A DNA stretch of 64,000 bases from an uncultured Gemmatimonadales bacterium. Lineage in GTDB: Bacteria > Gemmatimonadota > Gemmatimonadetes > Gemmatimonadales > GWC2-71-9. The notes under the pieces are model-generated. The model made no database searches. It saw only the letters and a program-made list of their open reading frames with translations, and was not told where the DNA came from. A program made the translations under genes and the position numbers. Location: positions 114,644 through 178,643 of the forward strand of contig CAWHMT010000004.1 in NCBI GenBank assembly GCA_963830455.1. Direction: 5' to 3'. Of this stretch, positions 41,415-57,525 are shown in pieces. Each line of letters starts with the position of its first letter. Within the stretch, counting starts at the first letter, position 1.

Positions 41415-42848
41415 ATGACCTCTATCCCAGCCGCCCCGCAACGCGTCGAGTTCGTCAAGGCGATTTCGCGACTCGACGCCACCGCCCTCGTGGTCGGATC
41501 CATGATCGGGTCCGGCATCTTCATCGTATCTGCCGATATCCTGCGTCAGGTCCACTCCCCGGGCCTGCTGCTCACGGTTTGGCTGGTCTCGGGGGTGGTG
41601 ACGCTGCTGGGCGCGCTCACCTACGGCGAGCTCGCGGCGATGTTCCCGAAGGCCGGCGGCAACTACATCTACCTGCGCGAAGGGATTTCGCCGCTGTTCG
41701 GCTACCTCTACGGGTGGACCCTGTTCGTCGTCATCCAGACCGGGACGATCGCGGCGGTCGCTGTGGCGTTCGCGCGTTTCACCTCGGTCCTGTGGCCCGG
41801 ACTCTCACCCGACGTGTTCCTGGGCACGACGATCACGTTCCCCGACCCGATCGGGTCGATCAACGTGGGCCTCTCGCCCCAGCGGATCTTCGCGATTGCG
41901 TCGATCGCGCTGCTCACGTGGATCAACGTGCGCGGAGTACGCACCGCCGCGTTCATCCAGACGTCGCTGACGTTGATCAAGACCGCCGCGCTGGCGGCGC
42001 TGATTCTGCTGGGCCTCGCCATCGGACGAAACGCCGCGGCGATCGCAGCCAATTTCGGATCGAGTTTCTGGGCCGGCGGCGCGCTGACGCTCGCGGTCCT
42101 GCCGGTGGTGGGCGCCGCGATGGTGGGGTCGCTCTTTTCCATGGATGCCTGGAACAACGTGGGATTCGCATCCGGTGAGCTGAAGAACCCGGAGAAAGAC
42201 TTGCCGTTCGCCATGGCGGTGGGTGTGCTCACGGTGACGACGCTGTACGTGCTCGCGAACGTCGCGTACCTCAACGTCCTGCCCGCCGACGCCATCGCCA
42301 ACGCGCCCCAGGACCGCGTCGGGACCGCCGCGATGCAGGCGATGTTCGGCCCCGCCGGGCTCTACATGATGGCGATCGCGATCATGATCTCGACGTTCGG
42401 GTGCAACAACGGGCTGATCCTGTCGGGCGCGCGCGTCTATTACGCGATGGCACAGGACAACCTGTTCTTCAAGTCCGCCGCCAACCTGCATCCCACGTAC
42501 AGGACGCCGGCCCTTGCCTTGATCGTGCAGGCGATCTGGACGTGCGTGCTGTGTCTCTCGGGCACGTACGGCCAGCTCCTGAACTTCGTGATCTTCGCGG
42601 CGGTCGCGTTCTACGCGGTGACGGCGATCGGGTTGTTCCGGCTGCGTCAGAGGCGACCCGATTTGCCGCGCCCGGTGCGTGCGCCCGGGTATCCTGGGCT
42701 CCCCGCGTTGTACATCGTCCTCACCAGCCTGATCGCCATCGACCTGCTGGTGCAGGACGCGACCCGCACATACGCGATGTTGGGGCTGATCCTGGTGCTG
42801 CTCGGCGTGCCCGTGTACTACGGCTGGAGGCGGATGGCTGACTCGTAG
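41415..42848 (+). CDS. APC-superfamily amino acid permease
   Basis: 477 aa, 12 predicted TM segments. VVGSMIGSGIFIVSADI, GELAAMFPKAGGNYIYL. Confidence 0.9.
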   Translation: MTSIPAAPQRVEFVKAISRLDATALVVGSMIGSGIFIVSADILRQVHSPGLLLTVWLVSGVVTLLGALTYGELAAMFPKAGGNYIYLREGISPLFGYLYGWTLFVVIQTGTIAAVAVAFARFTSVLWPGLSPDVFLGTTITFPDPIGSINVGLSPQRIFAIASIALLTWINVRGVRTAAFIQTSLTLIKTAALAALILLGLAIGRNAAAIAANFGSSFWAGGALTLAVLPVVGAAMVGSLFSMDAWNNVGFASGELKNPEKDLPFAMAVGVLTVTTLYVLANVAYLNVLPADAIANAPQDRVGTAAMQAMFGPAGLYMMAIAIMISTFGCNNGLILSGARVYYAMAQDNLFFKSAANLHPTYRTPALALIVQAIWTCVLCLSGTYGQLLNFVIFAAVAFYAVTAIGLFRLRQRRPDLPRPVRAPGYPGLPALYIVLTSLIAIDLLVQDATRTYAMLGLILVLLGVPVYYGWRRMADS

Positions 42849-42850
42849 GC

Positions 42851-42867
42851 TTCGGGTTATATTCGGG
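42851..42867 (+). promoter_or_regulatory. TTCGGG-N5-TTCGGG box (copy 1) overlapping a TATATT -10; leaderless promoter of the Zn-ribbon ORF / radical SAM operon
   Basis: TTCGGGTTATATTCGGG. TATATT at 42858-42863 lies 7 nt before ATG 42871. Confidence 0.5.
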
Positions 42868-42870
42868 TGT

Positions 42871-42999
42871 ATGGTCGTACGCACCAAACCCCCGAGAAAA
42901 CCGCCTCAAGCTCCGCCATGCCCCGACTGCGGCGCCAAGACCACCCCGCAGTCCGGCTGCCTGGTGTGCCCTCAGTGCGGCTGGGCGCGCTGTGGCTAA
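42871..42999 (+). CDS. 42-aa Cys-rich zinc-ribbon-like micro-protein
   Basis: Hand translation (below the ORF-track size cut-off): MVVRTKPPRKPPQAPPCPDCGAKTTPQSGCLVCPQCGWARCG, stop TAA 42997-42999. CPDC...CLVCPQC...C pattern. Overlaps the next gene's GTG by 8 nt. Confidence 0.5.
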   Translation: MVVRTKPPRKPPQAPPCPDCGAKTTPQSGCLVCPQCGWARCG

Positions 43000-44089
43000 G
43001 AGAGCGGTTAGGCGGTCAGACGGTTCGACGGTTAGTGCTACCATCGAACTGCCTCTCGGCCCAACCGCTCAACCGTCTAACCGTCTAACCGTCCAAGTTC
43101 TCGACCAACGCCTCCGCGGCACGAGGTTCGTCTCACTAACTCCCCAACGCGTCCTCAACCCGCCAAGCGCGACCGGCATGGCTTACTGGTCGCTCAATCC
43201 GTACGTCGGCTGCGAATTCGGCTGCAGTTACTGCTACGCGCGCTACACGCATCGCTACGTCGTCGAGCGCGCGCATGACGCCGGCAAACTGACCGATGCC
43301 GAATTTGCGGATTACCGTGGAGCACACGGATGGGAGGCGTTCGAGAAGCGGATCTTCGTGAAGGAGCAGGTCGTCGGCGCGCTCGACGCCGATCTCAAGC
43401 GAGTGCCGCTCGGCGAAACGATCGTGATCGGGACGGCAACAGATCCGTATCAACCCGCCGAGCGCCGCTTTCGGGTGACGCGCGCGGTGCTGCAGCGCCT
43501 GGCGCGCTGTGAAGGACTGTCGTTCGGCATCATCACCAAAAGTCCACTGATCGCACGCGATGCAGACCTGCTGGTTCGGCTCCAGGAGCGCAACGAGCTT
43601 CAGGTGCACGTCTCGCTCATCACCGCCGATGCGTCACTCGCGCGCCGGCTCGAAGCGCGCTCGCCCGTCCCCGCGGCGCGGCTGCGCGGTCTGCGCAAGC
43701 TCGTCGACGCCGGGGTCAACGCGGGATTGATTGTCGCGCCCGTGCTGCCCGGCATCACCGACGCCGTCGCGCAGCTCGACGCCCTGTTTGCCGCCGCGAA
43801 GGACGCCGGTGCTCGATTCGTGCACGCGGGCCCGCTCCGGCTCTATCCCGCCATCCGCGATCGTTTCCTACCCGTGCTCGGGGAGCATTTCCCCGAACTG
43901 GTGCCCAAGTACCAGCGCGCTTATGCCGGACACGGCTATGCGCCACGCGACTATGCGAAGGCGCTGTCGCGCCGCGTCGAGCGGCTGCGGCGTAAGCACG
44001 GGTTCAGGAATGAAAGCGCGATGTACGATCGGTACCGCAGCCAGATTCCGGTGCAGGGCGAGCTGGAGCTGCGCGGCAGCCTGCCCTAG
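42992..44089 (+). CDS. SplB-like (COG1533, 'DNA repair photolyase'-type) radical SAM protein
   Basis: WSLNPYVGCEFGCSYCYAR (CxxxCxxC cluster). The conserved pre-cluster segment RGTRFVSLTPQRVLNPP lies upstream of the first ATG (43177), so GTG 42992 is the only canonical start. Confidence 0.8.
   Translation: MAKRAVRRSDGSTVSATIELPLGPTAQPSNRLTVQVLDQRLRGTRFVSLTPQRVLNPPSATGMAYWSLNPYVGCEFGCSYCYARYTHRYVVERAHDAGKLTDAEFADYRGAHGWEAFEKRIFVKEQVVGALDADLKRVPLGETIVIGTATDPYQPAERRFRVTRAVLQRLARCEGLSFGIITKSPLIARDADLLVRLQERNELQVHVSLITADASLARRLEARSPVPAARLRGLRKLVDAGVNAGLIVAPVLPGITDAVAQLDALFAAAKDAGARFVHAGPLRLYPAIRDRFLPVLGEHFPELVPKYQRAYAGHGYAPRDYAKALSRRVERLRRKHGFRNESAMYDRYRSQIPVQGELELRGSLP
43004..43092. repeat. Inverted pair of 8-nt tandem arrays (4 units each, core GACGGTT / AACCGTC)
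   Basis: Left: GCGGTTAG GCGGTCAG ACGGTTCG ACGGTTAG (43004-43035). Right: CCAACCGC TCAACCGT CTAACCGT CTAACCGT (43061-43092). 25-nt spacer. About 25 of 32 positions can pair. Confidence 0.6.
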
Positions 44090-44760
44090 TTGCGCGACAC
44101 CAGCTCGAACACGCGGGTCTGACCGCAAACGGGAGTCACGACGTCGTGCACATAGCCGCGCACAAACGCGTACGCGAGGCCCGTGGTATCGGCCTGGTCC
44201 TCGAGGACATAGCTCCAACTCAATCCGCCCACCGGCTGCAGCCGCACGCACCCGTTGTCCACGAACTTGCTGGCGAATCCACCTGCGTTGCGCGTGGTGC
44301 TCTCCGGACCGTCCGTATTGTTGAGGCGAACCGTCACCTCGCCGTAGGTCCGAACAGGAAGATCGGCCGCGGTGAGCCGTTCTGGCCCGTACACGCTCGA
44401 AGAGGCGCGCATCTCGAACGTGCGCATGTAATTCGCCGTGAGCCCAGGCGCAGTGCCGACAGTATCGAGATCCACATAGTAAATGTCGAGCTGCAGTGCC
44501 TCCAACGGGCAGATCTGTGGCTTGTCCTTCACGAGAAAGTAGGGCGCGAATGTGACCGCCGATTGATCGGCGCTGGCGCCGGGGTTGTAGACGCCCTGAG
44601 AGCAACCGGGCCTCGACACGAGCATCCGCACCATGAACGGCGTCGCTACGGGCACCTCGGCCGGCCATTCCATCCATTCGACCGTCGATGACGCGACCGT
44701 GAGGTCCGATCCGCATGCGGCGATGAGAGCGCAAACCGAAGCCAACAGCACAGGGCGCAT
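44086..44760 (-). CDS. Hypothetical lipoprotein
   Basis: Start ATG 44760: MRPVLLASVCALIAAC/GS lipobox. No recognisable domain. Confidence 0.6.
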   Translation of the reverse strand: MRPVLLASVCALIAACGSDLTVASSTVEWMEWPAEVPVATPFMVRMLVSRPGCSQGVYNPGASADQSAVTFAPYFLVKDKPQICPLEALQLDIYYVDLDTVGTAPGLTANYMRTFEMRASSSVYGPERLTAADLPVRTYGEVTVRLNNTDGPESTTRNAGGFASKFVDNGCVRLQPVGGLSWSYVLEDQADTTGLAYAFVRGYVHDVVTPVCGQTRVFELVSRN

Positions 44761-44799
44761 GGCAATCCTCGTGAATGGTGGGTTCCCCAAATACCTACC

Positions 44800-45771
44800 C
44801 TAGCGAGGCTCCCCCGCGTCACTTTCCTCCCACATCTTCACGACCGCTCTGATCGTTCCTGGTGCGTTCCCCTCCGCGCGGTTGTTCGCAAGAATGAATG
44901 CCTCGACTCGCCGCCGGTGCGCTTGCGTCACCAGACGCACGAGATCCTGGCGCAGACTCGGCAGTGGCTCCTGAACTCGATCGTACGGCTGGAACTGCTT
45001 CACGGCGTCGGCGTACCGCCGGCCCGGCTTCAAGAGCGCGCGCGCGACCGTGAAGCCGGTCGGGAAAGTCCACTTCAGGTCGAGCTGCTCGCCGATCGAT
45101 GGCATCTCCGTCCAGGAGTTGAACACGTGCGCGACGCGGTTGCGTTTCAGGACCTCGCCGTGGAGGTCGGTCATGAGCTCCGGATTTCGCAGCTCGACGG
45201 CGTAGCGAAAGTCGGTCGGCAGTTGACCGAGAAAGTCGTCCAGCTGATCGGCCCACTGTAGTGGATCGGGAAGATCCTTCCCCCGCATCGCCTGGAATTC
45301 GAACACGAAGGGCCCCGCATGATCGCGAAACACCCGACCGTACGGACCTAGCACGCCGTCCTTGAACAGCGTGGCGTTCAGGAAATCGGGATTGCGCATC
45401 CCCGCGAGCCCCGGCTGCGGCGCATCCTGCCCCAGTCGCTTCGCGGTGATGCGATCCCAGACCTTACTGACGCAGGGGAAGCCGGGCGGCAACGCATGCG
45501 CATAGGCGGCCAGCTCTTCTTCTGACGGCGGATCGTAAAACGCGCTGTCGATCCCTACGGTGCGAAACAGCGGGTAGCGCGTGTACTCCTCGAGCCGTCG
45601 CGCCGGTTGCGGACCACGATAGCGGCGATGGTAGATGTCGCCGAACCAGCCATCGTAGGTCCAAGTGGACGTCCCAAACCGGATGCTCAGCGGGATCCGC
45701 TCAGCCAGTTCGACGACTTCGCGGCTTGGTGCTGGAAGGGTCTCGGGCCCGAACAGGTCAGGTTGGCTCAT
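44800..45771 (-). CDS. DUF72 (UPF0759, YecE-like) protein
   Basis: Start ATG 45771 (MSQPDLF), 9 nt after a TATATT hexamer. IRFGTSTWTYDGWFGDIY, VGIDSAFYDPPS, FEFQ pattern typical of DUF72. Confidence 0.8.
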   Translation of the reverse strand: MSQPDLFGPETLPAPSREVVELAERIPLSIRFGTSTWTYDGWFGDIYHRRYRGPQPARRLEEYTRYPLFRTVGIDSAFYDPPSEEELAAYAHALPPGFPCVSKVWDRITAKRLGQDAPQPGLAGMRNPDFLNATLFKDGVLGPYGRVFRDHAGPFVFEFQAMRGKDLPDPLQWADQLDDFLGQLPTDFRYAVELRNPELMTDLHGEVLKRNRVAHVFNSWTEMPSIGEQLDLKWTFPTGFTVARALLKPGRRYADAVKQFQPYDRVQEPLPSLRQDLVRLVTQAHRRRVEAFILANNRAEGNAPGTIRAVVKMWEESDAGEPR

Positions 45772-45831
45772 CGAAGTCCAAATATACCAATCGATTAACT
45801 CCTTGGTGGTGAGCTTGCGACATCTACTGGT

Positions 45832-45848
45832 TTCGGGATATATTCGGG
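45832..45848 (+). promoter_or_regulatory. TTCGGG-N5-TTCGGG box (copy 2) overlapping a TATATT -10; promoter of imuB-dnaE2
   Basis: TTCGGGATATATTCGGG. TATATT at 45839-45844. 19 nt to ATG 45868. Confidence 0.5.
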
Positions 45849-45867
45849 TCCCTTTGGTGACTTGGCA

Positions 45868-47097
45868 ATGTCTCGACGTCCTACGAGCTCGCTCGCTGCC
45901 TGCGTTTGGATCCCCCTCTTCCCGCTGCGCTGTGAAGAGGCGCGTCACGGTGAGCTAGCCGGTTTTCCCACCGCCCTGCTCGCCCCCGATACCACGCGCA
46001 AACTCTGGCAGGTCTCCTCGCCGGCCCGGCACACCGGGGTGAAGCCGGGAATGACGGTCAGCCAGGCGATCGGTCTCTGTCCCACGCTGCACCTCATCGA
46101 GCCCGATCCGGTCCACTACGACGAGCAGTTCGCGCAGCTGCTGGCCGCACTGAGTGAAGTGAGCCCCATCGTGGAGGCGGCCGAGCTGGGGCTCGCGTAC
46201 GTGGGCGTCGATGGGTTGCAGGGCATTTTCGGTTCTCCGGATAAGATCATCGAAGCGATTCGGCAGAACGTCCGTCCGTCAGACCGTCCGACCGTCAGAC
46301 TGGGTTGGGGAGTTGGAAAATTCACAGCTTGGGTGGCCGCAAGCCGCGCCAAGCCGAGCGAAGCGGTCGTGGTCCCGCTGGGACACGAACGGAGTTTTCT
46401 CGCTTCCCAACCCATCGCCGTTCTTCCGCTCGATGCGGACACGCACCATCGCCTGCGCCGGCTCGGCATTCGCACGCTCGGCGCGCTCGCCGCATTGCCC
46501 GAGGCGGCGATCACGGCCCAGTTCGGCGCGACGGGAAAACGGCTGTGGCAGCTGGCCGCGGGCCGAGTCATCGAGCCCGTTCAGGGACGCGTCGCGCCGG
46601 AGCCGATCGCAGCCGCACTCTCATTCTTCTCACCGGTCGGCGAACGCGAGCTGCTCGTTCACGCCCTCGACCAGCTGATCGCGCGCGCGCTCAAACATCC
46701 GCGCCGCATCGGCTGGCGCGTGTACGCATTGCGCGTGCGCGCGGAGATCGAGGGCGGCGGCTCCTGGCTCACCGCGCATCTGTTCAAGGATCCGACCGCC
46801 GACGCGGGCCGCATCGCCGCGCCGCTCCGGATGCGACTCGAGCAGTCACCTCCCACCGGCGCCGTCGAGCGGCTGGTCCTCGAGTTCACCGGCTTCGCTC
46901 CGGGGACGACGGAGCTGCAGTTGTTCGCGCGCGATGCGCAGGCGGCCGCGCGCGCGGGACAGCAGCGCGCGCTGCGCAGCGCGGCACGCGAAATCCGGAT
47001 GCGCGTCAAGCGCACAGTGCTGTATCACATCATCGAGGTGCAGCCATGGTCGCGCCTGCCCGAGCGCCGCTACGCACTGATCGACTACGAGCCGTAA
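45868..47097 (+). CDS. imuB: ImuB, Y-family-polymerase-like subunit of the ImuB/DnaE2 mutasome
   Basis: ATG 45868 (the ORF-track TTG is 2 codons upstream). N-terminus ACVWIPLFPLRCEE lacks the DxD catalytic motif of active DinB. Y-family palm/fingers-like regions (GLAYVGVDGL, LGWGVGKFTAWVAA, LPLDADTHHRLRRLGIRTLGAL). Directly upstream of dnaE2. Confidence 0.8.
   Translation: MSRRPTSSLAACVWIPLFPLRCEEARHGELAGFPTALLAPDTTRKLWQVSSPARHTGVKPGMTVSQAIGLCPTLHLIEPDPVHYDEQFAQLLAALSEVSPIVEAAELGLAYVGVDGLQGIFGSPDKIIEAIRQNVRPSDRPTVRLGWGVGKFTAWVAASRAKPSEAVVVPLGHERSFLASQPIAVLPLDADTHHRLRRLGIRTLGALAALPEAAITAQFGATGKRLWQLAAGRVIEPVQGRVAPEPIAAALSFFSPVGERELLVHALDQLIARALKHPRRIGWRVYALRVRAEIEGGGSWLTAHLFKDPTADAGRIAAPLRMRLEQSPPTGAVERLVLEFTGFAPGTTELQLFARDAQAAARAGQQRALRSAAREIRMRVKRTVLYHIIEVQPWSRLPERRYALIDYEP
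46269..46300. repeat. 8-nt tandem repeat (4 units) inside imuB
   Basis: CGTCCGTC CGTCAGAC CGTCCGAC CGTCAGAC. CCGTCAGAC recurs exactly 16 nt apart. Reverse complement shares the GACGGT core with the 43004-43092 arrays. Confidence 0.5.
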
Positions 47098-47117
47098 ACG
47101 AGCCCCGCCGAGTTGCG

Positions 47118-47354
47118 GTGGAGGTTGATGCGGACGGTGTGCCGGTTGTACTGCGGCGGTCAAAAGACGACGGCGGCGGTCAAGAAACGACTGCGGCGGT
47201 CGTCGAGGTAGTCCTCGAATCATGGCGCGTCGATGACGAATGGTGGAGGCAGCTCATCTCACGTCGGTATTTCGCCGTGTTGCTCGAAGGAGGAACGCGA
47301 GTGGTGCTCTTCGAAGATCTAGTGAGCGGCCAATGGTACATGCAGACCGCCTGA
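47118..47354 (+). CDS. Small conserved-looking ORF between imuB and dnaE2 (resembles what I recall as the DUF6504 family)
   Basis: Hidden in the ORF track as the tail of shadow ORF 46305..47354. From GTG 47118: VEVDADGVPVVLRRSKDDGGGQETTAAVVEVVLESWRVDDEWWRQLISRRYFAVLLEGGTRVVLFEDLVSGQWYMQTA. Trp/aromatic-rich, non-shadow-like composition. Confidence 0.5.
   Translation: MEVDADGVPVVLRRSKDDGGGQETTAAVVEVVLESWRVDDEWWRQLISRRYFAVLLEGGTRVVLFEDLVSGQWYMQTA
47151..47206. repeat. 20-nt tandem array (2.8 units), inverted relative to 47352-47435
   Basis: CTGCGGCGGTCAAAAGACGA CGGCGGCGGTCAAGAAACGA CTGCGGCGGTCGTCGA. Confidence 0.7.
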
Positions 47355-47435
47355 CCGCCGCCTTTGCCTTTTGACCGCCGCCTTTGCCTTTTGACCGCCT
47401 TGACTGCCGCCTTTTCTTTTTGACCGCCGCCTTTC
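47352..47435. repeat. 20-nt tandem array (about 4 units) ending at the dnaE2 ATG
   Basis: TGACCGCCGCCTTTGCCTTT x2 (perfect copies), then TGACCGCCTTGACTGCCGCCTTTTCTTTT and TGACCGCCGCCTTTC, followed by ATG. CTTTTGACCGCCGC is the exact reverse complement of GCGGCGGTCAAAAG in the upstream array. Confidence 0.75.
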
Positions 47436-50400
47436 ATGTACGCCGAGCTCCACTGCCACTCCGCCTACTCGTTCCTCGATGGGGCCTCGCCGCCTGACGA
47501 GCTCCTCGCCGAAGCGCACCGGCTGGGCTACCCCGCCCTCGCGCTCACCGACCGCAACGGAGTCTACGGCTCGCTCGCGTTCGCGCACGCCGCGCAACCG
47601 CTCGGCATGCAGGCGATCACCGGCGCTGCAGTCACGCTGACCGACGGTGCGGAGCTCATTCTGCTCGCCGAATCGGCGGAGGGCTACGCGAACTTGTGTC
47701 GACTGCTCACCCAGGCACATCTGGGCGCCGAGCGGCTCGATCCCCGGCTGCCGCTCAGCGCGATCGAAGCACGTCATGAAGGCTTGATCATCCTGTCGGG
47801 ATCCCGACGCGACGGATTGCTGCCGCGGACGCTCGAATCCGAGGGGCTCAGCGCCGCCCGCAAGCTCGCGGATCAATGCAATGAGATGTTCGGACGCGGT
47901 CGTTTTTTCGTTGAAATCCAGAGGAATCGTGTTCGGGGGGACCTGGCGCTCAGTCGCGCGTTAATCGACGTGGCGGGAGGCTTGCAACTTGGCGTCTTAG
48001 CAACTGGAAACATCCATTATCACGCCCGGAACCGTCACCGCTTACACGACGTGATGGTCGCCATCCGCCACCGGACGACGCTGGACGGCTCCCACCGGGT
48101 CAGAAACCCGAACAGCGAATTTTACTTGCGGCCACTGGACGAAGTCGTTTCGCTGTTCGATGACTGTCCTGATGCTGTCGCCACTTCCTTGGCCATTGCC
48201 GAGCGCTGCAAGGGCTTCGACATCACCCGCGACCTCGGCTACACCTTCCCCGACTTTCGCGGGGCAGAGCGCGCGCCCGCACCGGAGGCGTTGGCCGAGT
48301 TGTGCGACGGACGCCTGCTCGAGCGCTACCCTCCTGGCTCCATTTATCACGCCCAGGCGGTGCGCCGGCTCGACGAAGAGCTGAAACTCATCGAGCATCA
48401 CAAGCTCAGCGGGTTCTTTCTCGTCTATCACGATCTGTTCGATCTCGCGCGCGAGGTCGCGGTCGACGTGCGCCGCGGTTCCCGGCGCGCCAGCGGCAAT
48501 CTGCTCCCCGGCCGGGGCCGCGGCTCCTCGGTGTCCTCCATCGTCTGCTATCTGCTCGGCCTCTCCCATATCGATCCGATCGCCAACAAGCTCTTCCTCG
48601 GCCGTTTTTTGAACGAAACGCTCGCGTCCGTCCCCGACATCGACCTCGATTTTCCTCGCGAGATCCGCGAGGAGCTGATTCGGCGTGTCTATACGCGCTA
48701 CGGCGCTGAGCACGTCGGACTCGTGTGCACGTTCCCGACGTACCGCCTGCGATCGGCGGTGCGCGAAATCGGGAAAGCGCTCGACTTGCCTTTGGGTGAG
48801 ATCGAGCTCGTGGCAAAGCTGTCGGACAGTCGGACCGACGGACTGTCGGACGAGCTGCAACATCTTCCCGGCTTCGAGGGACGCAAGGATGCGCCTCTGT
48901 GGAAAGAGCTGTGTGAGCTGGCGGCGGAGATTCGCGGACTGCCGCGTCACGTGTCGCAGCACCCCGGCGGGATGATCATCTCATCGCGCCCGCTGGTCGA
49001 GCTGGTGCCGCTCGAGCGCGCCGCGATGGAAGACCGCGTCGTGTGCCAGTGGGACAAGGACTCGTGCGACGACGCGCGCTTCATCAAGATCGACTTCCTC
49101 GCGCTCGGCATGCTGTCGCTCGTCGAGGAATGCGTCGAGCTGATCGCGCGCCACACCGGAACGCCGCCGGATCTCTCGCGCATCGATTTCGAGGACCCCG
49201 TCATCTACGACCGCATCTGCGCCGGCGATACGATCGGCCTGTTTCAAATCGAGAGCCGCGCGCAGATCCAGATGATTCGTCGCAGCAGGCCGCGCAATCT
49301 CGAAGACCTCGCGGTCGAAGTCGCGATCGTCCGACCCGGACCGATCGTCGGCGGAGCCGTGAACCCGTACGTGCGCCGGCGCGAGGAGCAACGGCGCGCG
49401 CACGCCGCCGGCCTGCCGTACGAGCCGCCCGTCGACCATCCGCTGCTCCGCGAATGTCTCACCGAAACGCTCGGCGTCATTCTCTACCAGGATCAGGTGC
49501 TGCAGGTGTGCCAGGCGCTCGCAGGATTCACGACCGGACAGTCGGAAGCGCTGCGCCGGGCAATGAGCCGGCGCCGTTCGCACGACTTGATCGCGGGCTT
49601 CTGGGAGGAATTCCGCCAGGGCGCGCTGGCGCGGGGTGTTCCCGAAGCGACCGCCGAGAAGGTGTTCGGCCATGTGACCGCATTCAGCGAGTTCGGGTTT
49701 CCCAAGTCGCACGCCGCTGCGTTCGGCCTGCTCGCCTATCAATCTGCCTGGCTCAGGCACTACCACCCGATCGAGTACTACGTCGCGCTCTTCAATAACC
49801 AGCCGATGGGCTTCTACTCGATCGATGCGCTCGGCCGCGATGCGATGCGCAACGGCATCCAGATGCGACTGCCTGATATCAATCGGAGCGATGTCTGGTG
49901 CACCGTCGAAGCCAACCAGGGTGACGTGGGGGCCCTAAGAGTTGGTTTGGGATTCGTGCGTCACTGGAGCGAAGAAACCGCGACCGCGACAGTCGCAGAG
50001 CGGGAGAAACACGGTCCATTCAAAAGCGTGGGGGACTTCATCCGCCGCGCGCCGGCCAAGCTCAAACGCACCGCCATCGAGGCGCTGATGTGGGTCGGCG
50101 GGTGTGACCGCTTCGGTCTCACCCGGCGCGAGCTGCTCTGGCAGGTCGGGCTGTGGCTGCCACCCAAAGCGTCACGCTCCGGGGACGGCCGGGGCAGGCG
50201 GCAGCTCGAATTGGCCTTGAACCACCCCCACGAGCATCTCCACTTCGGCGAACTGGCCGACCACGAGCGCCTGCTCGCCGAGTACGCTACCCTCGGCTTC
50301 TCGGCGAGCGGGCATCCTTTGTCGTTGGTACGTAAGGCTTTACCATCTGACCTGACACTGAACCAGGATTTGGACAAACTGAAGGCCGGAACACCCTGCC

Positions 50401-50732
50401 TGGTGGCCGGCCTGGTCGTCGCCCGTCAGCGGCCCCAGACCGCCAAGGGAACGGTGTTCCTGCTGGTCGAAGATGAGACCGGCATGACGAACGTGATCGT
50501 GCGGACGGATGTCTACGATCGCTATCGTGCGGCGATTCGCGGTGAGCCGTTCGTGCTCGTACGCGGCAAGCTCGCCAAGGACGATGGGACGGTAAACGTG
50601 CTGGCTGAGGAGGTGCGAGGCTTACAATGCGACATCAAATCCCCGGATCCCGTCCCCAGAGAATCCCCCGCCGCATTCAGCTTCTTACGGGCGATGCGGC
50701 GCGTCGCACCCGGCTCCAAAGACTGGGGCTGA
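47436..50732 (+). CDS. dnaE2: Error-prone DNA polymerase III alpha-like subunit DnaE2 (ImuC)
   Basis: PHP N-terminus MYAELHCHSAYSFLDGAS, GRGSSVSSIVCYLLGLSHIDP, PDIDLDF, OB-fold C-terminus. 1098 aa. Cassette position after imuB. Confidence 0.95.
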   Translation: MYAELHCHSAYSFLDGASPPDELLAEAHRLGYPALALTDRNGVYGSLAFAHAAQPLGMQAITGAAVTLTDGAELILLAESAEGYANLCRLLTQAHLGAERLDPRLPLSAIEARHEGLIILSGSRRDGLLPRTLESEGLSAARKLADQCNEMFGRGRFFVEIQRNRVRGDLALSRALIDVAGGLQLGVLATGNIHYHARNRHRLHDVMVAIRHRTTLDGSHRVRNPNSEFYLRPLDEVVSLFDDCPDAVATSLAIAERCKGFDITRDLGYTFPDFRGAERAPAPEALAELCDGRLLERYPPGSIYHAQAVRRLDEELKLIEHHKLSGFFLVYHDLFDLAREVAVDVRRGSRRASGNLLPGRGRGSSVSSIVCYLLGLSHIDPIANKLFLGRFLNETLASVPDIDLDFPREIREELIRRVYTRYGAEHVGLVCTFPTYRLRSAVREIGKALDLPLGEIELVAKLSDSRTDGLSDELQHLPGFEGRKDAPLWKELCELAAEIRGLPRHVSQHPGGMIISSRPLVELVPLERAAMEDRVVCQWDKDSCDDARFIKIDFLALGMLSLVEECVELIARHTGTPPDLSRIDFEDPVIYDRICAGDTIGLFQIESRAQIQMIRRSRPRNLEDLAVEVAIVRPGPIVGGAVNPYVRRREEQRRAHAAGLPYEPPVDHPLLRECLTETLGVILYQDQVLQVCQALAGFTTGQSEALRRAMSRRRSHDLIAGFWEEFRQGALARGVPEATAEKVFGHVTAFSEFGFPKSHAAAFGLLAYQSAWLRHYHPIEYYVALFNNQPMGFYSIDALGRDAMRNGIQMRLPDINRSDVWCTVEANQGDVGALRVGLGFVRHWSEETATATVAEREKHGPFKSVGDFIRRAPAKLKRTAIEALMWVGGCDRFGLTRRELLWQVGLWLPPKASRSGDGRGRRQLELALNHPHEHLHFGELADHERLLAEYATLGFSASGHPLSLVRKALPSDLTLNQDLDKLKAGTPCLVAGLVVARQRPQTAKGTVFLLVEDETGMTNVIVRTDVYDRYRAAIRGEPFVLVRGKLAKDDGTVNVLAEEVRGLQCDIKSPDPVPRESPAAFSFLRAMRRVAPGSKDWG

Positions 50733-51667
50733 GCCTGGTCCTGATCGCCGCCTGCGGCGGTCAGCCAGAACCCGAGCAGACGGCGCCGGCCGCCGCCCCT
50801 CCCGCGCCGGCTCCCGTTTTCCCTCGCACCCTGTACGCGTTGGACGTCAACGGCACCCGGCTCACGTATCGCCTGATCGGCGACAGTGGCGCCGCGCCGA
50901 TCGTGTTCGTGCACGGGACGCTGGGCGATTACCGTTCCTGGAGCGGTCAGGAAACGGCGTTCGCTCGAGCCTATCGCGTGCTCGTGTACAGCCGTCGCTA
51001 CCATCCACCCAATCCGCAGGTCGTCGACACCAACCAGGTGTACTCGCCCAAGGTGCATGCCGAAGACCTGGCGGCGATGCTGCTCTCGCTCGACATCGCG
51101 CCGGCTCACATCGTGGGTGCCTCGTACGGCGCGTACACCGCGCTGGCACTCGCGCGCGATCACCCCAACCTCGTGCGCTCTCTGGTGCTTGCCGAGCCAC
51201 CCATCCTGCACTTGCTGACCATGTCCGAGGCTGGGGACGCCGCGCGTCGGGCCTTTTCCATCAACGTGCTCGATGTTTCGCGCCGCGCGTTCTCCCGCGG
51301 CGATTCGGTCACCGCGTTGCGCGTGTATTACGACGGAGTGTACGGGAGGGGGCGGTTCGACGAGCTCCCACCGGCGACGCGCGCTGATGTGCTGGCGCAC
51401 GCATTCGAGATGCGACAGGAGATGCTGACGAACCGCGAACAGTACTTTCCGGCTATTTCCTGCGGCGAACTGGGCCGAGTGACGACGCCCGTGCTGCTGG
51501 TGAGGGGCGAGCGCAGCCCGCGGCTGTTTCAGCTCATCACTGACGAGCTGGCGCGCTGCCTGCAGAGCGACACCACCGTCGTGATCCCCGGCGCCGGCCA
51601 TCCACCCAACGTGGGCAACGCGGCCTACTTCAACCAGATGGTGGCTCGCTTCCTGGCATCCCACTAG
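50627..51667 (+). CDS. Alpha/beta-fold hydrolase, lipoprotein
   Basis: IVFVHGTLGDYRSW, nucleophile elbow HIVGASYGAY (GxSxG), lipobox LVLIAAC/GG. ATG 50627 overlaps dnaE2 by 106 nt. In-frame CTGs at 50723 and 50729 (CTGA with the dnaE2 stop) are alternatives. Confidence 0.75.
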   Translation: MRHQIPGSRPQRIPRRIQLLTGDAARRTRLQRLGLSLVLIAACGGQPEPEQTAPAAAPPAPAPVFPRTLYALDVNGTRLTYRLIGDSGAAPIVFVHGTLGDYRSWSGQETAFARAYRVLVYSRRYHPPNPQVVDTNQVYSPKVHAEDLAAMLLSLDIAPAHIVGASYGAYTALALARDHPNLVRSLVLAEPPILHLLTMSEAGDAARRAFSINVLDVSRRAFSRGDSVTALRVYYDGVYGRGRFDELPPATRADVLAHAFEMRQEMLTNREQYFPAISCGELGRVTTPVLLVRGERSPRLFQLITDELARCLQSDTTVVIPGAGHPPNVGNAAYFNQMVARFLASH

Positions 51668-52648: not shown

Positions 52649-53185
52649 ATGACAACCCAGCTCGCCACGCTCGCCGGCGGCTGCTTCTGGTGTCTCGAAG
52701 CGGTCTTCGAGCAGCTCAAAGGTGTGAAGAAGGTCGAGTCCGGCTACTCGGGTGGACACGTCCCCAACCCGAGCTATGAAGCGGTGTGCTCAGGCACGAC
52801 GGGGCACGCCGAGGTCACGCAGGTCACGTTTGCTCCCGACGTGATCTCGTTCCGCGATCTGCTCGGCGTGTTCTTCTCGATCCACGATCCCACGACGCCC
52901 GACCGCCAGGGTGGCGACGTAGGCACGCAGTACCGCTCGGCGGTCTTCTATCATGACGACGAACAGCGGCGTGTTGCGGAGGATCTCGTCCGTGAGCTCG
53001 AGGCCGAGCACGTCTTTGACGATCCGATCGTGACTAAGATCGAGCCGCTCAAGGCGTTCTATCCGGCCGAGGAGTATCACCGGGAGTACTACAGCAGGAA
53101 TCCCAACCAGGCATACTGCCGCGCTGTGATCGCGCCGAAAGTGGCGAAGCTGCGCAGCAAGTACCTCGAAAAACTGAAGGCCTAG
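52649..53185 (+). CDS. msrA: Peptide-methionine (S)-S-oxide reductase
   Basis: [11 protein letters not shown] active site, [16 protein letters not shown]. Confidence 0.95.
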
Positions 53186-56100
53186 CCCGCCGCTTTGCTC
53201 TTGCCGAGGTAGGTGCGCACGAGCGGCGCCGGCCGGCGCCGCAGCAGCGCGCCGCGCAGCATGTCGCGCTCCTCTGCCGGTACGTCGACGAGGAAGCGCT
53301 CTTTTCCTTCTGCTTCTTTCACGACGATCGGCACACCGTCACGGTAGAGGATTCTGTTGGTCGTAATCGCAGGGACGGCCTCATCGGGCGTCAGTATGCC
53401 CACGAGGTTGAGCGGATCCGCTCCACTCACGGCGATGAGCTCGTCGTCGCCCTGCTCCTTGCGTGTGCTGCGCAGCAGACCGATGGCCTCGGGCAGCGCG
53501 TACTGCTCCCCCGAGAACCCGCCGACGAACCGGCCGCCGCGGATCTCGCCGCGTGCTTCCAGCCGGCGGAACACTCGCAGGATGTCGCGCCAGGGAGCGA
53601 GCAAGGTCTCCCGCTGCACCAGCCGGCGGAACACGACGCCGTAGCGGCGCAGCAGCTGCCAGGCGATCGTCTCCGCCACTTGCTCTTCTGGAATGGCCGG
53701 CCGTGAATGCGCGCGGGCCCAGCGGCCGGCGTTCTCGACGCCGAACGGCGCAATGTGCCCGCGCCGCCGGTACCCGCCACCGAGCGGCCGCCGTCGATCC
53801 GAGGGCACAAGCAACGCCCGCAGTCCGGCAAAGCTGTCCGACGACACCAATCCCCAGGCCACCAGCTCCGCCAGCCCCTTTTCGACTTCGGTTCGGAGCA
53901 AGCCCGTCGCGTTGACGAGATCGCCGAAGAACTGCGCCCCGCGCGTGTCGAACGCGGCGAGCATCGCCTTGGCCGTGGACGAGAGCGGCAGCGTAGCCGG
54001 ATCGATCTCGGGAAGCCCGGCGCGCCAGATCTCGCCGCGGTCTCGCCGGAACAGCGCGATGGGCGTGCTCTTAACCGGCCCAACCTTTCTGTTCCGCGTT
54101 CCGCCTTCCGCGTTCCGCGTTGCCGTCAGTCGCCCCCACGCCACTTCCCCGGACAGGCACAGGCCATCCAGCCAGAGCGGGTCGTAATCGGTCAGCCGCG
54201 CCGGCAGAACCTCGGACTCCCACGCGCCGGCGGCCACTTCGTAACCGTCCAGCAGATCGAGAACCGCCGCTAGACCTTCGGGACCTTCGCCGCGCGAGCC
54301 CGTGGCCACACGCTGCCACTTGAAGAGGAAGCGCAGGAAATCGGCCGCTGCGACCGGCTCGATCTCTTTGCGAAGGCGGTCGAGCGTATAGCGATGAATG
54401 CGAGCCAGCAGCCGGCGCTCGCACCACTCGATCCCCTCGACTCCCGACGAGAACCGGCCGCGCAGCGCGAACCCCTCATGCTCGAGCCCAGCCAATGCGA
54501 TTTCGATGTCGCTCGGCGGCAGGCCGAGCGCCGCGGCGACATCGGCGGTCGTCGTTGGTCCCACGACCTCCAGCCGGCCGCGCACCAGTTCTCGAATCGC
54601 GTCTTCCCTGCTCCACGTCTTGGCGCGTTCGCGTTCGGGAGGCGTGACCACCGGCTCGACCGGAGCAGCGGGGAATGCGGCTTGCACCAGCGGCACGCGC
54701 TCGGTCGCGACCCAGAGCTTGCCGTCGAGCACCGTGGCGCGACCGGCCGCGACGAGTGTCGCGAAGTCACCGCTCCAATCCCTGGTCTTTCCGCCCTCGA
54801 CACTTGGCACCGCGCCCATGACGAGGAGAGCATCGTGCAGCTCGTCCGAATTCTCAGGATCCGGCCACGCCTGCTCCCTGACCAGGTCGATGGCGGCCTG
54901 ATCGAGCTTCCCGAACTCTTCGGCGCTCTTGACGTCCAGGCCACGACGCGTAATCACCGCGCGCGTCCGCCGCTCCTCGAGCGGCGCGTCGTCGAGGAAG
55001 GCATAGGGCCGCGCGTTCAAGACTTCGTGTGACAGCGGCGACGGCTCACTCGTGTCGCGGGCGATCATCGTGAACTGCCCCGCCTCCATCCCTTCGAGCA
55101 CCTTTTTCAAGCCCGGGAAGTCCATCGCCTCCAGCAGGCAGTCGGCGATCGTCTGGTTGACGAGCGGATGATCGGGGATCTCGCGGTCGCCAACGAGATT
55201 CTCGGGGCACGCGAGCTGATCCGGGAACACCGCTGCCACAAGGTCCTCCGCCTCCATGCGCTGCAGCGGCGTCGGCACCTTCCGGCCGCCCCGGAACCGC
55301 AGCACCGCGAGCGCGCGAGTCGCATTCCAGCGCCACCGCGTTCCAAAGACCGGGGCATCGAGCATCGCCTGCACGAGCAGATGCTCCGCCGTTGCCGGCT
55401 TGAGGTACTGGAAGACGTCGTCGAGCGGGAAGCTGTGCTGTGGCCCGAGCGACAACACGATCGCGTCCTCGGTCGCGGCCGCCTGCAGCTCGAAGTTGAA
55501 GCTGCGACAGAACCGCTTGCGCAGCGCGAGGCCCCACGCCCGGTTGATCCGGCTGCCGAACGGCGCGTGCAGGACGAGCTGCATGCCGCCCGCTTCGTCA
55601 AAGAAGCGCTCCAGCACCAGACATTGCTGCGTGGGGATCGTGCCGAGGATCTGCCGCGTGGCCGCGAGGTACTCGACGATCTGCCGCGCGCCGGCATCCG
55701 TCAGTCCGACCGTGTCGACCAGCCACGTGATGGCAGCCGGCAGATCATCGAGCCGGTCCGCGACATCCTGCCGAAGCCGTGACACTTCCTCGGACAGCTC
55801 ATTCGTGCGTCCGGGGGCTTCGCCAAGCCAGAACGGCAGCGTCGGTGGCTGCCCTTTGGCGTCGGCAACGCGAACCTGACCGGACTCGACTTTGACGATG
55901 AGATACGACGTGTTGCCCAGCTGGAAGATGTCGCCCGGGTTGCTCTCGATCGCGAAGTCTTCGTTGAGCGTGCCGACGAACGTCTCGGTTGGCTCGAGGA
56001 TCACGCGGTAGTCGCCGAGATCCGGAATGGCGCCACCGGAGGTGATGGCGGCGATGCGCGCGCCGCGACGGCCCTTGAGCTTCTTGTTGATCCCGTCGTA

Positions 56101-57504
56101 GTGGATGTGCGCGCTGCGCCGGCCGCGCCGGGTCGTGAAACCCTCCGCCAGCATCTGCACCACGTCGTCGAATTCCTTGCGAAGCAGATCCCGATACGGG
56201 TACGCCGAGCGGACCCGCTCGTAGAGCGTGTCCTCTTCCCACTCTTCGCCGGCCGCGGCCGCGACGATCTGCTGGGCAAGGATGTCGAGCGGCTTGTCGG
56301 GAATGATCAGCCGGTCGAGCCGGCCCTCGCGGGTGGCGCGCAACATGGCGGCGCACTCGATGAGCTCGTCCCGCGACAGGACGAACACCCGTCCCTTTGG
56401 AATCGCGCCGAGCCGGTGCCCCGCCCGTCCCACGCGCTGCAGCAATGTCGCGATCGATCGCGTCGACCCGACCTGGATCACGAGATCGACGCTGCCGATG
56501 TCGATGCCGAGCTCGAGCGACGCGGTGGCGACGAGGGCTTTGAGCTCGCCCTTCTTGAGACGCTCTTCGGCCTCGAAGCGTTTTTCTCGTGACAGGCTGC
56601 CGTGGTGACTGGTGACATGCTCGGCGCCAATCCGCTCCGAGAGCTGCATGGCGAGCCGCTCGGCCAGGCGCCGCGTGTTGACGAACACGAGCGTCGTCCG
56701 ATGCTGCGAGATGAGCTCGGCGATTCTGGTATTGACCTCTTCCCACACCTCGGCCGACATCACCGCCTCGAGCGGCGACGACGGAATCTCGAGCTCGAGG
56801 TCCAGGGTCCGAATGTGCCCCGCGTCCACGATCGTGGGCTGCGCGCGTCCCGTGCCGACGAGGAACTGCGCGATCTCCTCGATGGGCCGTTGTGTCGCTG
56901 ACAGACCGATGCGCTGCGGCCGCGTGCCGATCAGGGCGTCGAGCCGGGCGAGTGTCAGCGCCAGGTGGCTGCCGCGCTTGTCGCGGGCCACGGCATGGAT
57001 CTCGTCCACGATCACCACCCGCACCGACCGCAGCATCTCGCGGGCGCGCTCGGACGTGAGGATCAAGTAGAGCGATTCAGGGGTGGTGACGAGGATATGC
57101 GGCGGCTTCTTGAGCATCGCCTGCCGCTCGGACTGCGGTGTGTCGCCGGTGCGGACCAGCGTCCGCACTTCGACGTCGGGCAACCCCTGCTCCGCCATCT
57201 GCGCGCGAATCTCGGCGAGCGGCTCCGACAGGTTCTTCTGAACGTCGTTCGAGAGTGCCTTGAGCGGGGAGACGTAGACGACCTGCGTCTCGTCGCGTAA
57301 CTCGCCGTTCAGACCCTGGCGCACCAACCCGTCGATCGCCGACAGGAAAGCGGCGAACGTCTTGCCGGACCCCGTCGGCGCGGCGATCAATACATCGCCG
57401 CCCTGCCGGATTACCGGCCAGGCGCGCCGCTGAGGCTCCGTTGGCTCCGCGAATCGGTTGGCAAACCAGCGTTCGATGGCAGCATGAAAGAGAGACAGCG
57501 ACAT
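53182..57504 (-). CDS. lhr: Large ATP-dependent DEAD/DEAH helicase Lhr
   Basis: 1440 aa. [45 protein letters not shown], plus the long Lhr-type C-terminal extension. Confidence 0.9.
54091..54125. repeat. 7-nt tandem repeat (4 units plus 1 degenerate) inside lhr
   Basis: GTTCCGC GTTCCGC CTTCCGC GTTCCGC GTTGCCG on the plus strand. The coding strand reads GCGGAAC repeats and encodes [11 protein letters not shown]. Confidence 0.55.
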
Positions 57505-57508
57505 AAGG

Positions 57509-57525
57509 CCCGAAATATACCCGAA
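57509..57525 (-). promoter_or_regulatory. TTCGGG-N5-TTCGGG box (copy 3) overlapping a TATATT -10; leaderless-type promoter of lhr
   Basis: Minus strand reads TTCGGGTATATTTCGGG-CCTT-ATG. TATATT (57519-57514) lies 9 nt before the lhr ATG (57504). Confidence 0.5.

Follow-up and report, generated by a model that had tools for sequence, protein, structure and literature searches.

In many bacteria, pathogens included, damage-induced mutagenesis is driven mainly by DnaE2 together with ImuB, and to our knowledge little is known about post-transcriptional limits on the dose of DnaE2. In other systems, long-range pairing within an mRNA couples the translation of cistrons, as in the coat–replicase pair of RNA phage MS2 and in the rpmI-rplT operon of Escherichia coli. 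Short repeats in or near genes are familiar as well: the short tandemly repeated repetitive (STRR) sequences of cyanobacteria are dispersed tandem heptanucleotides described as direct arrays, and the contingency loci of Haemophilus and Neisseria are phase-variable simple sequence repeats of surface genes. Intragenic repetitive extragenic palindromes (REPs), whose unit is a 20–40-bp palindrome with an 8–13-bp stem and a GTAG or CGTC tag (a stem of 5–13 bp with a loop of 2–20 nt is also given), occur strikingly often in replication and repair genes, dnaE2 being named explicitly (Di Nocera et al. 2013, PMC3733652). An operon of a Y-family polymerase, a stand-alone ImuB-C and DnaE2, without ImuA, has been classified as the Kyrpidia type of mutasome operon (Timinskas and Venclovas 2019, PMC6511836), in a study that makes no mention of repeat arrays or of the boundary between imuB-C and dnaE2. 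Here we describe a mutagenesis cassette with the same gene order and content in a 64,000-nt stretch of DNA from an uncultured Gemmatimonadales bacterium (contig CAWHMT010000004.1; the whole stretch is referred to as the window), in which two arrays of short tandem units, array 1 inside the small middle gene and array 2 between that gene and dnaE2, make up the arms of a single long-range inverted repeat. The cassette contains no imuA, a divergent DUF72 gene is its upstream neighbour, and over the first 300 residues its DnaE2 shares 80–88% identity with the proteins of many Gemmatimonadales metagenome-assembled genomes (MAGs). Our preferred reading, to which we give a probability of roughly 0.4, is that an mRNA duplex between the arms couples translation of dnaE2, which has no Shine–Dalgarno (SD) sequence, to translation of the small gene, imuB-C.

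Array 1 contains three copies of ACNGCGGCGGTC, starting at 47150, 47170 and 47190 (Tandem Repeats Finder, TRF: period 20, score 77, 2.5 copies). Array 2 is built of TGACCGCCGCCTTTGCCTTT units from position 47352 onwards, with start-to-start spacings of 20, 29 and 20 nt, and includes two perfect units (TRF score 96). Its first three bases are the TGA of imuB-C and its last base adjoins the ATG of dnaE2, so that the whole gap is filled by an 84-nt sequence containing 33 C, 30 T, 16 G and 5 A. Positions 47155–47201 and 47353–47399 are 81% complementary over 47 nt, with one 30-nt pair reaching 90% and one 14-mer pair, GCGGCGGTCAAAAG and CTTTTGACCGCCGC, being an exact complement. With up to one mismatch allowed, the 64 kb contain the motif GCGGCGGTCAA 10 times, where 3.85 occurrences would be expected, a count of 10 being reached in 0 of 100 shuffles, and six of the ten occurrences fall within the 285-nt array stretch. 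The initial annotation of this DNA had described both arrays, the extent of array 2 from the small open reading frame (ORF) to dnaE2, the 14-bp complement, the location of array 1 inside the ORF (where it reads ..LRRSKDDGGGQETTAAVV..) and the missing SD; reading of the sequence, TRF, coordinates and translation bore out each of these.

The 20 nt preceding the dnaE2 ATG (TTTTTGACCGCCGCCTTTC) contain no purine-rich stretch, hence no SD, and an in-frame TGA lies 15 nt upstream of the start. No promoter-like site was detected between imuB and dnaE2, the only one being upstream of imuB (TTGCGA-18-TATATT, with its −10 element inside the direct repeat described below), and no intrinsic-terminator-like site (a short GC-rich hairpin followed by a T run) was found in 45700–47700; with no such sites in the region scanned, an internal promoter and an intrinsic terminator were both set aside. 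When positions 47100–47460 were folded as RNA, as the initial annotation had proposed, array 1 paired with array 2 on both strands (−165.8 kcal/mol, z = −4.7 on the plus strand; −154 kcal/mol, z = −4.7 on the minus strand). In the partition function of 47046–47500, array 1 paired with 47352–47411 at probabilities of 0.8–1.0.

These features suggest the following model. On the imuB/imuB-C/dnaE2 transcript, the arms would zip together over ~50 bp, forming an interrupted duplex with the ImuB-C core enclosed in it. Because dnaE2 lacks an SD and a promoter of its own, its translation would depend on ribosomes coming from imuB-C; these may melt the 5′ arm, thereby freeing the stop/start junction and an unstructured C/U-rich leader for re-initiation. 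Untranslated or leaky transcripts would keep the junction closed, and the mutagenic polymerase would then be made only alongside its partner subunit. What the sequences show is the anatomy, the covariation of the arms, translation through arm 1 and the lack of SD, promoter and terminator; that the arms pair in RNA and thereby control dnaE2 translation is inferred. The arms themselves may have been built, and may be kept alike, by replication slippage and templated copying from one arm to the other, which would explain fast turnover of the units and a strength and spacing of the device that differ between close relatives.

The arrangement resembles MS2 and rpmI-rplT in that the downstream cistron has no effective ribosome-binding site, the complement lies inside a translated upstream cistron, and passage of ribosomes would open the pairing. 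It differs from them in two ways: the partners are tandem arrays that change in sequence and copy number from one genome to the next, and the pairing predicted for the window spans the stop codon and the initial 60 nt of the gap but stops short of the start codon. Of the earlier suggestion of an RNA switch or a coupling device, the second half is reasonable, given that arm 1 is translated and that dnaE2 has neither SD nor promoter, whereas a ligand-type switch finds no support, there being neither sequence conservation nor an Rfam match. A search of 42700–51000 against Rfam 15 at E up to 1 gave only two chance-level matches, and ten related loci returned no non-tRNA family. A riboswitch was consequently rejected, complementarity being the only thing conserved.

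From the operon layout and the published description of a stand-alone ImuB-C as a small beta-rich protein, homologous to the C-terminal domain of ImuB and encoded between an inactive Y-family polymerase gene and dnaE2 (PMC6511836), the small ORF most likely encodes such a protein. A profile search placed it in a family of ~70–160 aa with 703 relatives, all 150 matches listed being shorter than 200 aa; no full-length ImuB was among those 150, so this search does not tie the ORF to the ImuB C-terminus. No Pfam or NCBIfam model matches it, and the protein of the window itself has no entry in the contig index searched. A poor AlphaFold2 model of ImuB-C showed three C-terminal strands at an overall pLDDT (predicted local distance difference test) score of 54.6, falling below 50 at residues 36–47.

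The start of the ORF, placed near the array in the initial annotation, is most likely the ATG at 47046, further upstream and inside the 3′ end of imuB, to judge from the 102 residues given by gene callers and from sequence conservation. This ATG sits in a conserved CCATGG within the last imuB codons, with a GAGG 7 nt upstream, and the path from it to the conserved core (..WRIDDEWWRQ..) is in frame and free of stops in 40 of 43 loci, although its length varies between 138 and 312 nt; in the other three (L032, L035 and L036 in our numbering of loci) the start has been relocated downstream of an array. ImuB-C homologues of 98–123 aa differ by whole repeat blocks. By its preserved reading frame, array 1 therefore lies in translated sequence, as a variable linker of ImuB-C. 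Within the overlap of imuB and imuB-C (47046–47097), the proline wobble base of CCATGG is an A in all 43 loci that carry the motif, and the overlap peptide ..DRLRAVNEP.. is conserved even in the three loci with a relocated start.

To follow the arms through related genomes, we fetched 49 Gemmatimonadales loci, located the ImuB-C core, its stop and the DnaE2 start in 48, and retained the 31 with at least 14 nt between the ImuB-C stop and the second dnaE2 codon. RNAduplex energies computed for every upstream region against every gap were so noisy, the DNA being GC-rich, that self pairs could not be ranked above cross pairs, and exact-word complementarity was used in their place: a locus was counted when at least 30% of the 7-mers in its gap had their reverse complement in its own upstream region, between the imuB stop and the ImuB-C core. 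This was the case in 19 of 31 loci, compared with none in direct orientation, and the mean against the upstream regions of other loci was 0.00–0.17. The matching pairs comprise at least 10 unit types, namely GGCGGTCAA (with a period of 20–29 nt), GACGGCCG, GTTGGACGG, GGCGGTTR, GGAGTGT, GGATTGC, GTGAGCG, GTGCGTG, GGCGGTCR and GGGCGATCA. The architecture is thus neither absent nor unconserved in relatives; it recurs, with both arms changing together. Across loci the arm rich in G is invariably the upstream one and that rich in C the downstream one.

The stop codon takes part in this covariation: the junction TGACCGCC goes with upstream GGCGGTCA in 10 loci, and TAACCGCC with GGCGGTTA in three (L007, L019 and L020). 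An exact complement of the 8 nt counted from the stop codon is present in 13 of 49 loci, a sister lineage of seven contigs being counted in, against 0 and 1 in the controls. Where there is a 3′ arm, it always reaches up to the dnaE2 start or runs into it, and in L001, L002, L015, L027 and the P0001 lineage it is read as the first DnaE2 codons through an ATGA or TTGA overlap. In 14 loci the stop and start overlap as TGATG and the downstream array is absent. The position of the 3′ arm on the junction, together with its absence where stop and start overlap, argues for a function at the imuB-C/dnaE2 boundary, as do the translated 5′ arm, the missing SD and promoter, a one-unit version that sits on the ATG, and complementarity in a second phylum (both below); translational coupling by unmasking is the simplest mechanism.

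Unit number is variable. The closest relative by ImuB-C (83% identity; seven contigs from different samples, L272–L278) carries a nearly identical three-unit array 1 and, downstream, just one TGACCGCC that overlaps the dnaE2 ATG; the single complement in L027 overlaps the ATG likewise. A relative with 8 differences over 266 nt of dnaE2 5′ sequence (97% identity) has a 263-nt version of what is a 335-nt stretch in our contig. The five-unit array 2 of the window thus represents a recent expansion. Among loci sharing a unit type, array 2 ranges from 1 to ~6 units (8 to 115 nt), and comparison of the sequences shows unit number to be labile in both arms; a check for unit-number polymorphism between strains or reads had been proposed in the initial annotation.

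Such lability could itself be the point of the arrays. Slippage in array 2 would alter the distance from stop to ATG, anywhere from a coupled ATGA overlap to an 81-nt gap without an SD, and so tune the amount of DnaE2 heritably and reversibly, as a repeat-number rheostat of the contingency-locus kind. The unit lengths of 7, 8 and 20 nt, none a multiple of three, the range of array 2 lengths at one unit type, the 263-nt version next to the 335-nt one and the block-wise variation of ImuB-C are all in keeping with this. As in contingency loci, the tracts lie in or just upstream of a gene and differ in number between relatives. Here, however, there are two complementary tracts, both short, the genes concerned are DNA-damage rather than surface genes, and no frame switching is seen, array 1 being in frame in 40 of 43 loci, which leaves ON/OFF frameshifting of ImuB-C without visible trace; three to five units are few for high slippage rates, and no polymorphism within a population was seen in the assembled contigs, the only material compared. 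Sequencing runs matched at most 44% of the words, in contigs, and no RNA run contained this sequence. We consider such a rheostat improbable as the explanation of the arrays.

Other readings concern the RNA or DNA of the arms in different ways. If array 2, rich in C and poor in G, were a loading site for Rho when free, or if the ~50-bp duplex were cut by RNase III, the junction would set the amount of dnaE2 message as an attenuator or processing site. With arm 1 blocked, array 2 is predicted to lack structure; the duplex has a length sufficient for RNase III, and a G-rich arm placed first would avoid exposing C-rich RNA. Yet the case is purely compositional, the 3′ arm of relatives is 8–20 nt long or translated, unlike a Rho utilisation (rut) site, and the terminator scan was empty, so that we regard this as quite improbable. 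The initial annotation had also raised the option of a protein-binding iteron set; on this reading the arrays would be DNA sites for a regulator of the cassette. An 11-nt core does recur every 20 nt, about two helical turns, in the window, and the cassette has a separate operator-like direct repeat upstream. Against this, unit and period vary between genomes (7, 8, 10, 20 and 29 nt), several unit types coexist in one operon, one arm lies inside a coding region, no gene for a DNA-binding protein accompanies the arrays, and what is conserved is complementarity rather than sequence; protein-binding sites are thus very unlikely. Recombination between the arms, 47-nt inverted repeats flanking a 150-nt segment, could in principle flip the ImuB-C core as an invertible switch. 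The core has the same orientation as dnaE2 in 48 of 48 readable loci, the joints seen in assembled contigs skip 47101–47435 with none changing strand, and no recombinase gene lies nearby; in view of the constant orientation in 48 loci we rejected this reading, to which we give almost no credence.

The rival that deserves most attention denies the arrays any dedicated role. Slippage would make arrays and template switching their inverted copies, both surviving only where tolerated (protein linkers, loops and gene junctions); a recent origin of the arms, or homogenisation of their DNA, would account for their likeness, and the clustering of arrays in damage operons would come not from a function but from a bias in mutation, such as error-prone gap filling in those genes that are most heavily transcribed during mutasome activity. 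Several observations speak for such a by-product, and a number of them weigh directly against coupling. Mismatches between the arms show no G-U bias (24 compatible with pairing on the plus strand, 18 with pairing on the minus strand, 32 neither), and complementarity is therefore proven while RNA pairing is not told from DNA copying. Enrichment in the damage operons extends to arrays that have no partner (in dnaE2 around 48821 and in lhr at 54091), so that tandem arrays in general, and not pairs alone, build up here; repeats of this build are also frequent in many phyla, in intergenic DNA unrelated to the cassette. Of the 14 TGATG loci, nine (the L008 type) retain the upstream array, whose complement is found ~900 nt upstream inside imuB instead of at the junction.

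Further points against coupling come from the folding model and from the gap. In the window, the predicted duplex extends over the stop codon and three units from there, leaving out the start codon: the two units closest to the ATG, which make up the 24 nt upstream of it, pair with array 1 at a probability of only 0.1–0.2, and holding array 1 open shifts the mean unpaired probability of the start region merely from 0.52 to 0.56. The earlier claim that any of the alternative stems would sequester the region 5′ of the dnaE2 start was not supported by these values. Re-initiation would also have to bridge 81 nt, a long distance, with a TGA in each unit. The by-product reading draws additionally on the fast turnover of unit and copy number (the closest relative has lost nearly all of array 2), on arrays that sit in frame at insertion-tolerant spots (the imuB loop, the ImuB-C linker and a C-terminal loop of dnaE2), and on the array-free operons L016 and L030.

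Other observations speak against a by-product. The orientation of the second array is inverted every time, in 19 loci against none, covering at least 10 types of unit; 27 of 28 generic hairpins (below) have their G-rich arm first, which would not be expected from random duplication; the 3′ arm lies exactly on the stop/start junction, with the stop codon covarying; the unit of the lhr array is constant across many genomes; and in Chloroflexota head–tail complementarity survives gene insertions in the loop. On balance, we rate an origin without dedicated role as somewhat less probable than coupling, which remains the reading that we prefer.

Arrays are not confined to the junction. With TRF run on all loci, short arrays (units of 7–8 nt, 3–5 copies) recurred at fixed places in the operon, namely the ImuB loop, the ImuB-C linker, the junction, two sites inside dnaE2 and a loop ~25 codons before the DnaE2 C-terminus. 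Intragenic arrays are always in frame and often form adjacent inverted pairs. At the imuB loop occupied by an 8-nt array in the window, relatives carry other arrays or inverted array pairs, and at the corresponding dnaE2 site most relatives carry CGGACGG-type arrays. The imuB and dnaE2 arrays of the window share the complementary 7-mer GTCCGAC/GTCGGAC at a distance of 2.5 kb, and in the nine L008-type relatives the array in imuB and that of the ImuB-C linker downstream are reverse complements of each other. Ten relatives (L010, L015, L017, L020, L027, L032, L036, L037, L039 and L040) have complete inverted heptamer-array hairpins (e.g. GGATTGC.. / ..GCAATCC) inserted in frame into a loop of DnaE2 just before the conserved C-terminal tail ..FLKAMRRVAPDSKDWG, ~25 codons from the stop; these proteins have 1102–1159 aa, compared with 1098 aa in the window, which has no insert there.

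Array density, measured with 10-kb flanks on either side of dnaE2, was 0.444 per kb in the imuB-dnaE2 operon, 0.309 per kb in a Zn-ribbon/radical-SAM operon and 0.169 per kb in lhr, compared with 0.015 per kb in all other DNA (6 arrays in 405.6 kb of the fetched loci), i.e. a 10–30-fold excess over neighbouring DNA. The three operons have a second trait in common. Just upstream of each lies a 17-nt direct repeat, TTCGGG(A/T)TATATTCGGG (TTCGGG-N5-TTCGGG), in the form TTCGGGTATATTTCGGG before lhr, referred to here as the box. Most of 42 related loci have it in the corresponding positions, and its imuB copy is identical or near-identical in most. Damage induction is known for imuB-dnaE2 cassettes in most bacteria and for lhr in mycobacteria, and for this reason the box is probably the operator of a Gemmatimonadales DNA-damage regulon. 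We found no published description of it.

To place the arrays in a wider context, exact scans were made for (GCGGAWT)3 and (GCGGTCA)3, each yielding at least 120 loci (L152–L271 and L279–L398, respectively). Matches came from Acidobacteriota, Verrucomicrobiota, Planctomycetota, Chloroflexota, Cyanobacteria, Streptomyces and others, with (GCGGTCA)n arrays in Moorena, Oscillatoria, Okeania and many other taxa. The typical form is an intergenic hairpin of (GCGGAWT)n, a 10–150-nt loop and (AWTCCGC)n, although paired arrays may lie anywhere from 10 to more than 800 nt apart; of 28 cases with both arms, 27 have the G-rich one on the 5′ side, a property that is the same on both strands. The arrays of the window are thus one case of a much wider repeat phenomenon. 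Homologues of ImuB, ImuB-C, DnaE2, Lhr, radical-SAM or DUF72 proteins were found in the fetched stretch of none of the 120 (GCGGAWT)3 loci listed and of one of the 120 (GCGGTCA)3 loci listed, the latter a weak radical-SAM match (L287), and on this ground we rejected the idea that the repeat class is generally specific to damage genes. No flanking gene family recurs with the heptamer hairpins either, the largest shared family covering 6 loci among those listed.

The initial annotation knew of no described equivalent, a statement that has to be softened: intragenic REPs in repair genes including dnaE2 (PMC3733652) and heptanucleotide tandem repeats are partial precedents. Like REPs and the bacterial interspersed mosaic elements (BIMEs) they compose, and like Rickettsia palindromic elements (RPEs), the arrays form hairpins, are mostly intergenic, are plausibly transcribed and in some cases lie in frame in protein loops. 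Unlike REPs, their units (GCGGCGGTCAA, GACGGTCG and GCGGAWT) are non-palindromic 7–20-mers that are complementary only between separate arrays, and neither a tag nor a gene of the REP-associated tyrosine transposase (RAYT) type was seen with them. With STRR sequences they share tandem heptamers dispersed through genomes; descriptions of STRR are not known to include a paired, polar inversion with the G-rich arm first or a concentration in damage operons. Rfam has no family for hairpins of opposed heptamer arrays, and full-text literature searches found no description of the cassette with repeats and no article quoting the repeat sequences. The class is widespread, has a strict arm polarity and is apparently undescribed.

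The junction was also compared in a second phylum, Chloroflexota. Their imuB-C/dnaE2 gap is often 300–1000 nt long and may hold a DUF559 or GIY-YIG gene. Between the first 50 nt past the ImuB-C stop and the 40 nt that lead up to the dnaE2 ATG, a perfect complement of 8 nt or more was present in 6 of 19 long-gap loci, and in 0 of 19 in direct orientation; the complement is kept despite the inserted genes. Examples are GCGGTCAGC/GCTGACCGC, a 22-copy (GCGGTCA) array and GTCAAAAGGCAAAGG. Among Dehalococcoidia, DUF559 (Vsr-like) or GIY-YIG nuclease genes lie between complementary gap ends in L055/L128 (9286–9460), L067, L070 and L079, one locus has (GCGGTCA/GCAGTCA) repeated 22 times directly after the ImuB-C stop, and CCCCCTTT..AAAGGGGG hairpins flank inserted genes.

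A more general proposition would be that the DNA-damage regulon of Gemmatimonadales, and of some Chloroflexota, is marked by fast-evolving "zippers" of polar, inverted tandem repeats, which are either a tunable brake on the mutasome or the mutational footprint of the mutasome; at present we find this doubtful. A brake would amount to post-transcriptional control tunable by repeat number, and thus a heritable rheostat for inducible mutagenesis, whereas a footprint would make the zippers the mark left by the mutasome on the genes most transcribed while it is active. Under either version a cross-phylum repeat class, (GCGGNNN)n, a loop and its complement, would gain biological meaning. Should the arms indeed tie DnaE2 to ImuB-C synthesis, they would add a new layer of mutagenesis control whose strength could drift by slippage. 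Whatever the function, the enrichment of arrays in the box-bearing operons, their fixed in-frame positions in imuB, imuB-C, dnaE2 and lhr, and the polar class itself are concrete results, and they extend the unexplained remark that intragenic palindromic repeats favour DNA repair genes (PMC3733652). For a phylum that has received little study, the box supplies a putative regulatory motif of the DNA-damage response.

Table 1 Features of the window around the mutagenesis cassette and the other box-bearing operons.
Feature	Position	Strand	Remarks
Box, first copy	42851–42867	+	before the Zn-ribbon/radical-SAM operon
42-aa CxxC...CxxC ORF	42871–42999		
Radical-SAM gene	42992–44089		
8-nt array, first arm	43005–43035		GCGGTTAG/GCGGTCAG/ACGGTTCG..
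8-nt array, second arm	43066–43095		CAACCGTC/TAACCGTC..
Box, second copy	45832–45848	+	TTCGGGATATATTCGGG; operator-like direct repeat upstream of imuB, overlaps −10-like TATATT; putative DNA-damage-regulon box
imuB-like Y-family polymerase gene	45862–47097	+	Pfam IMS; first gene of the cassette
8-nt tandem array in imuB	46264–46300	+	CAGACCGT/CCGACCGT, 4.6 copies; in frame, encodes ..VRPSDRPTVRL..
Small ORF, most likely stand-alone imuB-C	47046–47354	+	102 aa (gene callers); start overlaps imuB by 52 nt; TGA at 47352–47354
Array 1	47150–47206	+	purine-rich arm; three units, core GCGGCGGTC(AA), period 20; read as ImuB-C linker RRSKDDGGGQETTAAVV
Array 2	47352–47435	+	pyrimidine-rich arm; four to five units TGACCGCC(GCCTTTGCCTTT) with T/C-rich spacer; untranslated here
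dnaE2, error-prone DNA polymerase	47436–50732	+	1098 aa; five DnaE domains; best NCBIfam model "error-prone DNA polymerase"
8-nt array in dnaE2	48821–48851	+	GTCGGACA, 3.9 copies; in frame (TRF)
Near-palindrome after the dnaE2 stop	50741–50764		CTGATCGCCGCCTGCGGCGGTCAG; motif GCGGCGGTCA
lhr	53182–57504	−	
Heptamer array in lhr	54091–54121		GTTCCGC, 4.4 copies (GCGGAAC on the coding strand)
Box, third copy	57509–57525	−	before lhr

Several features listed in Table 1 lie outside the junction. The near-palindrome that follows the dnaE2 stop was considered as a possible further element and rejected as not part of the system, its resemblance to the motif being probably coincidental; by our own reading, made without a translation tool, it spells LIAACGGQ in frame and is lipobox-like for the following alpha/beta-hydrolase gene. 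Between the 42-aa CxxC...CxxC ORF and the radical-SAM gene, the two 8-nt arrays are an inverted pair and make up a hairpin, and relatives have arrays of other units at this place, 150–290 nt after the box. The heptamer array in lhr has no complementary partner in the window, and its unit is found at the same place in at least 8 related genomes, making it stable, unlike the other arrays.

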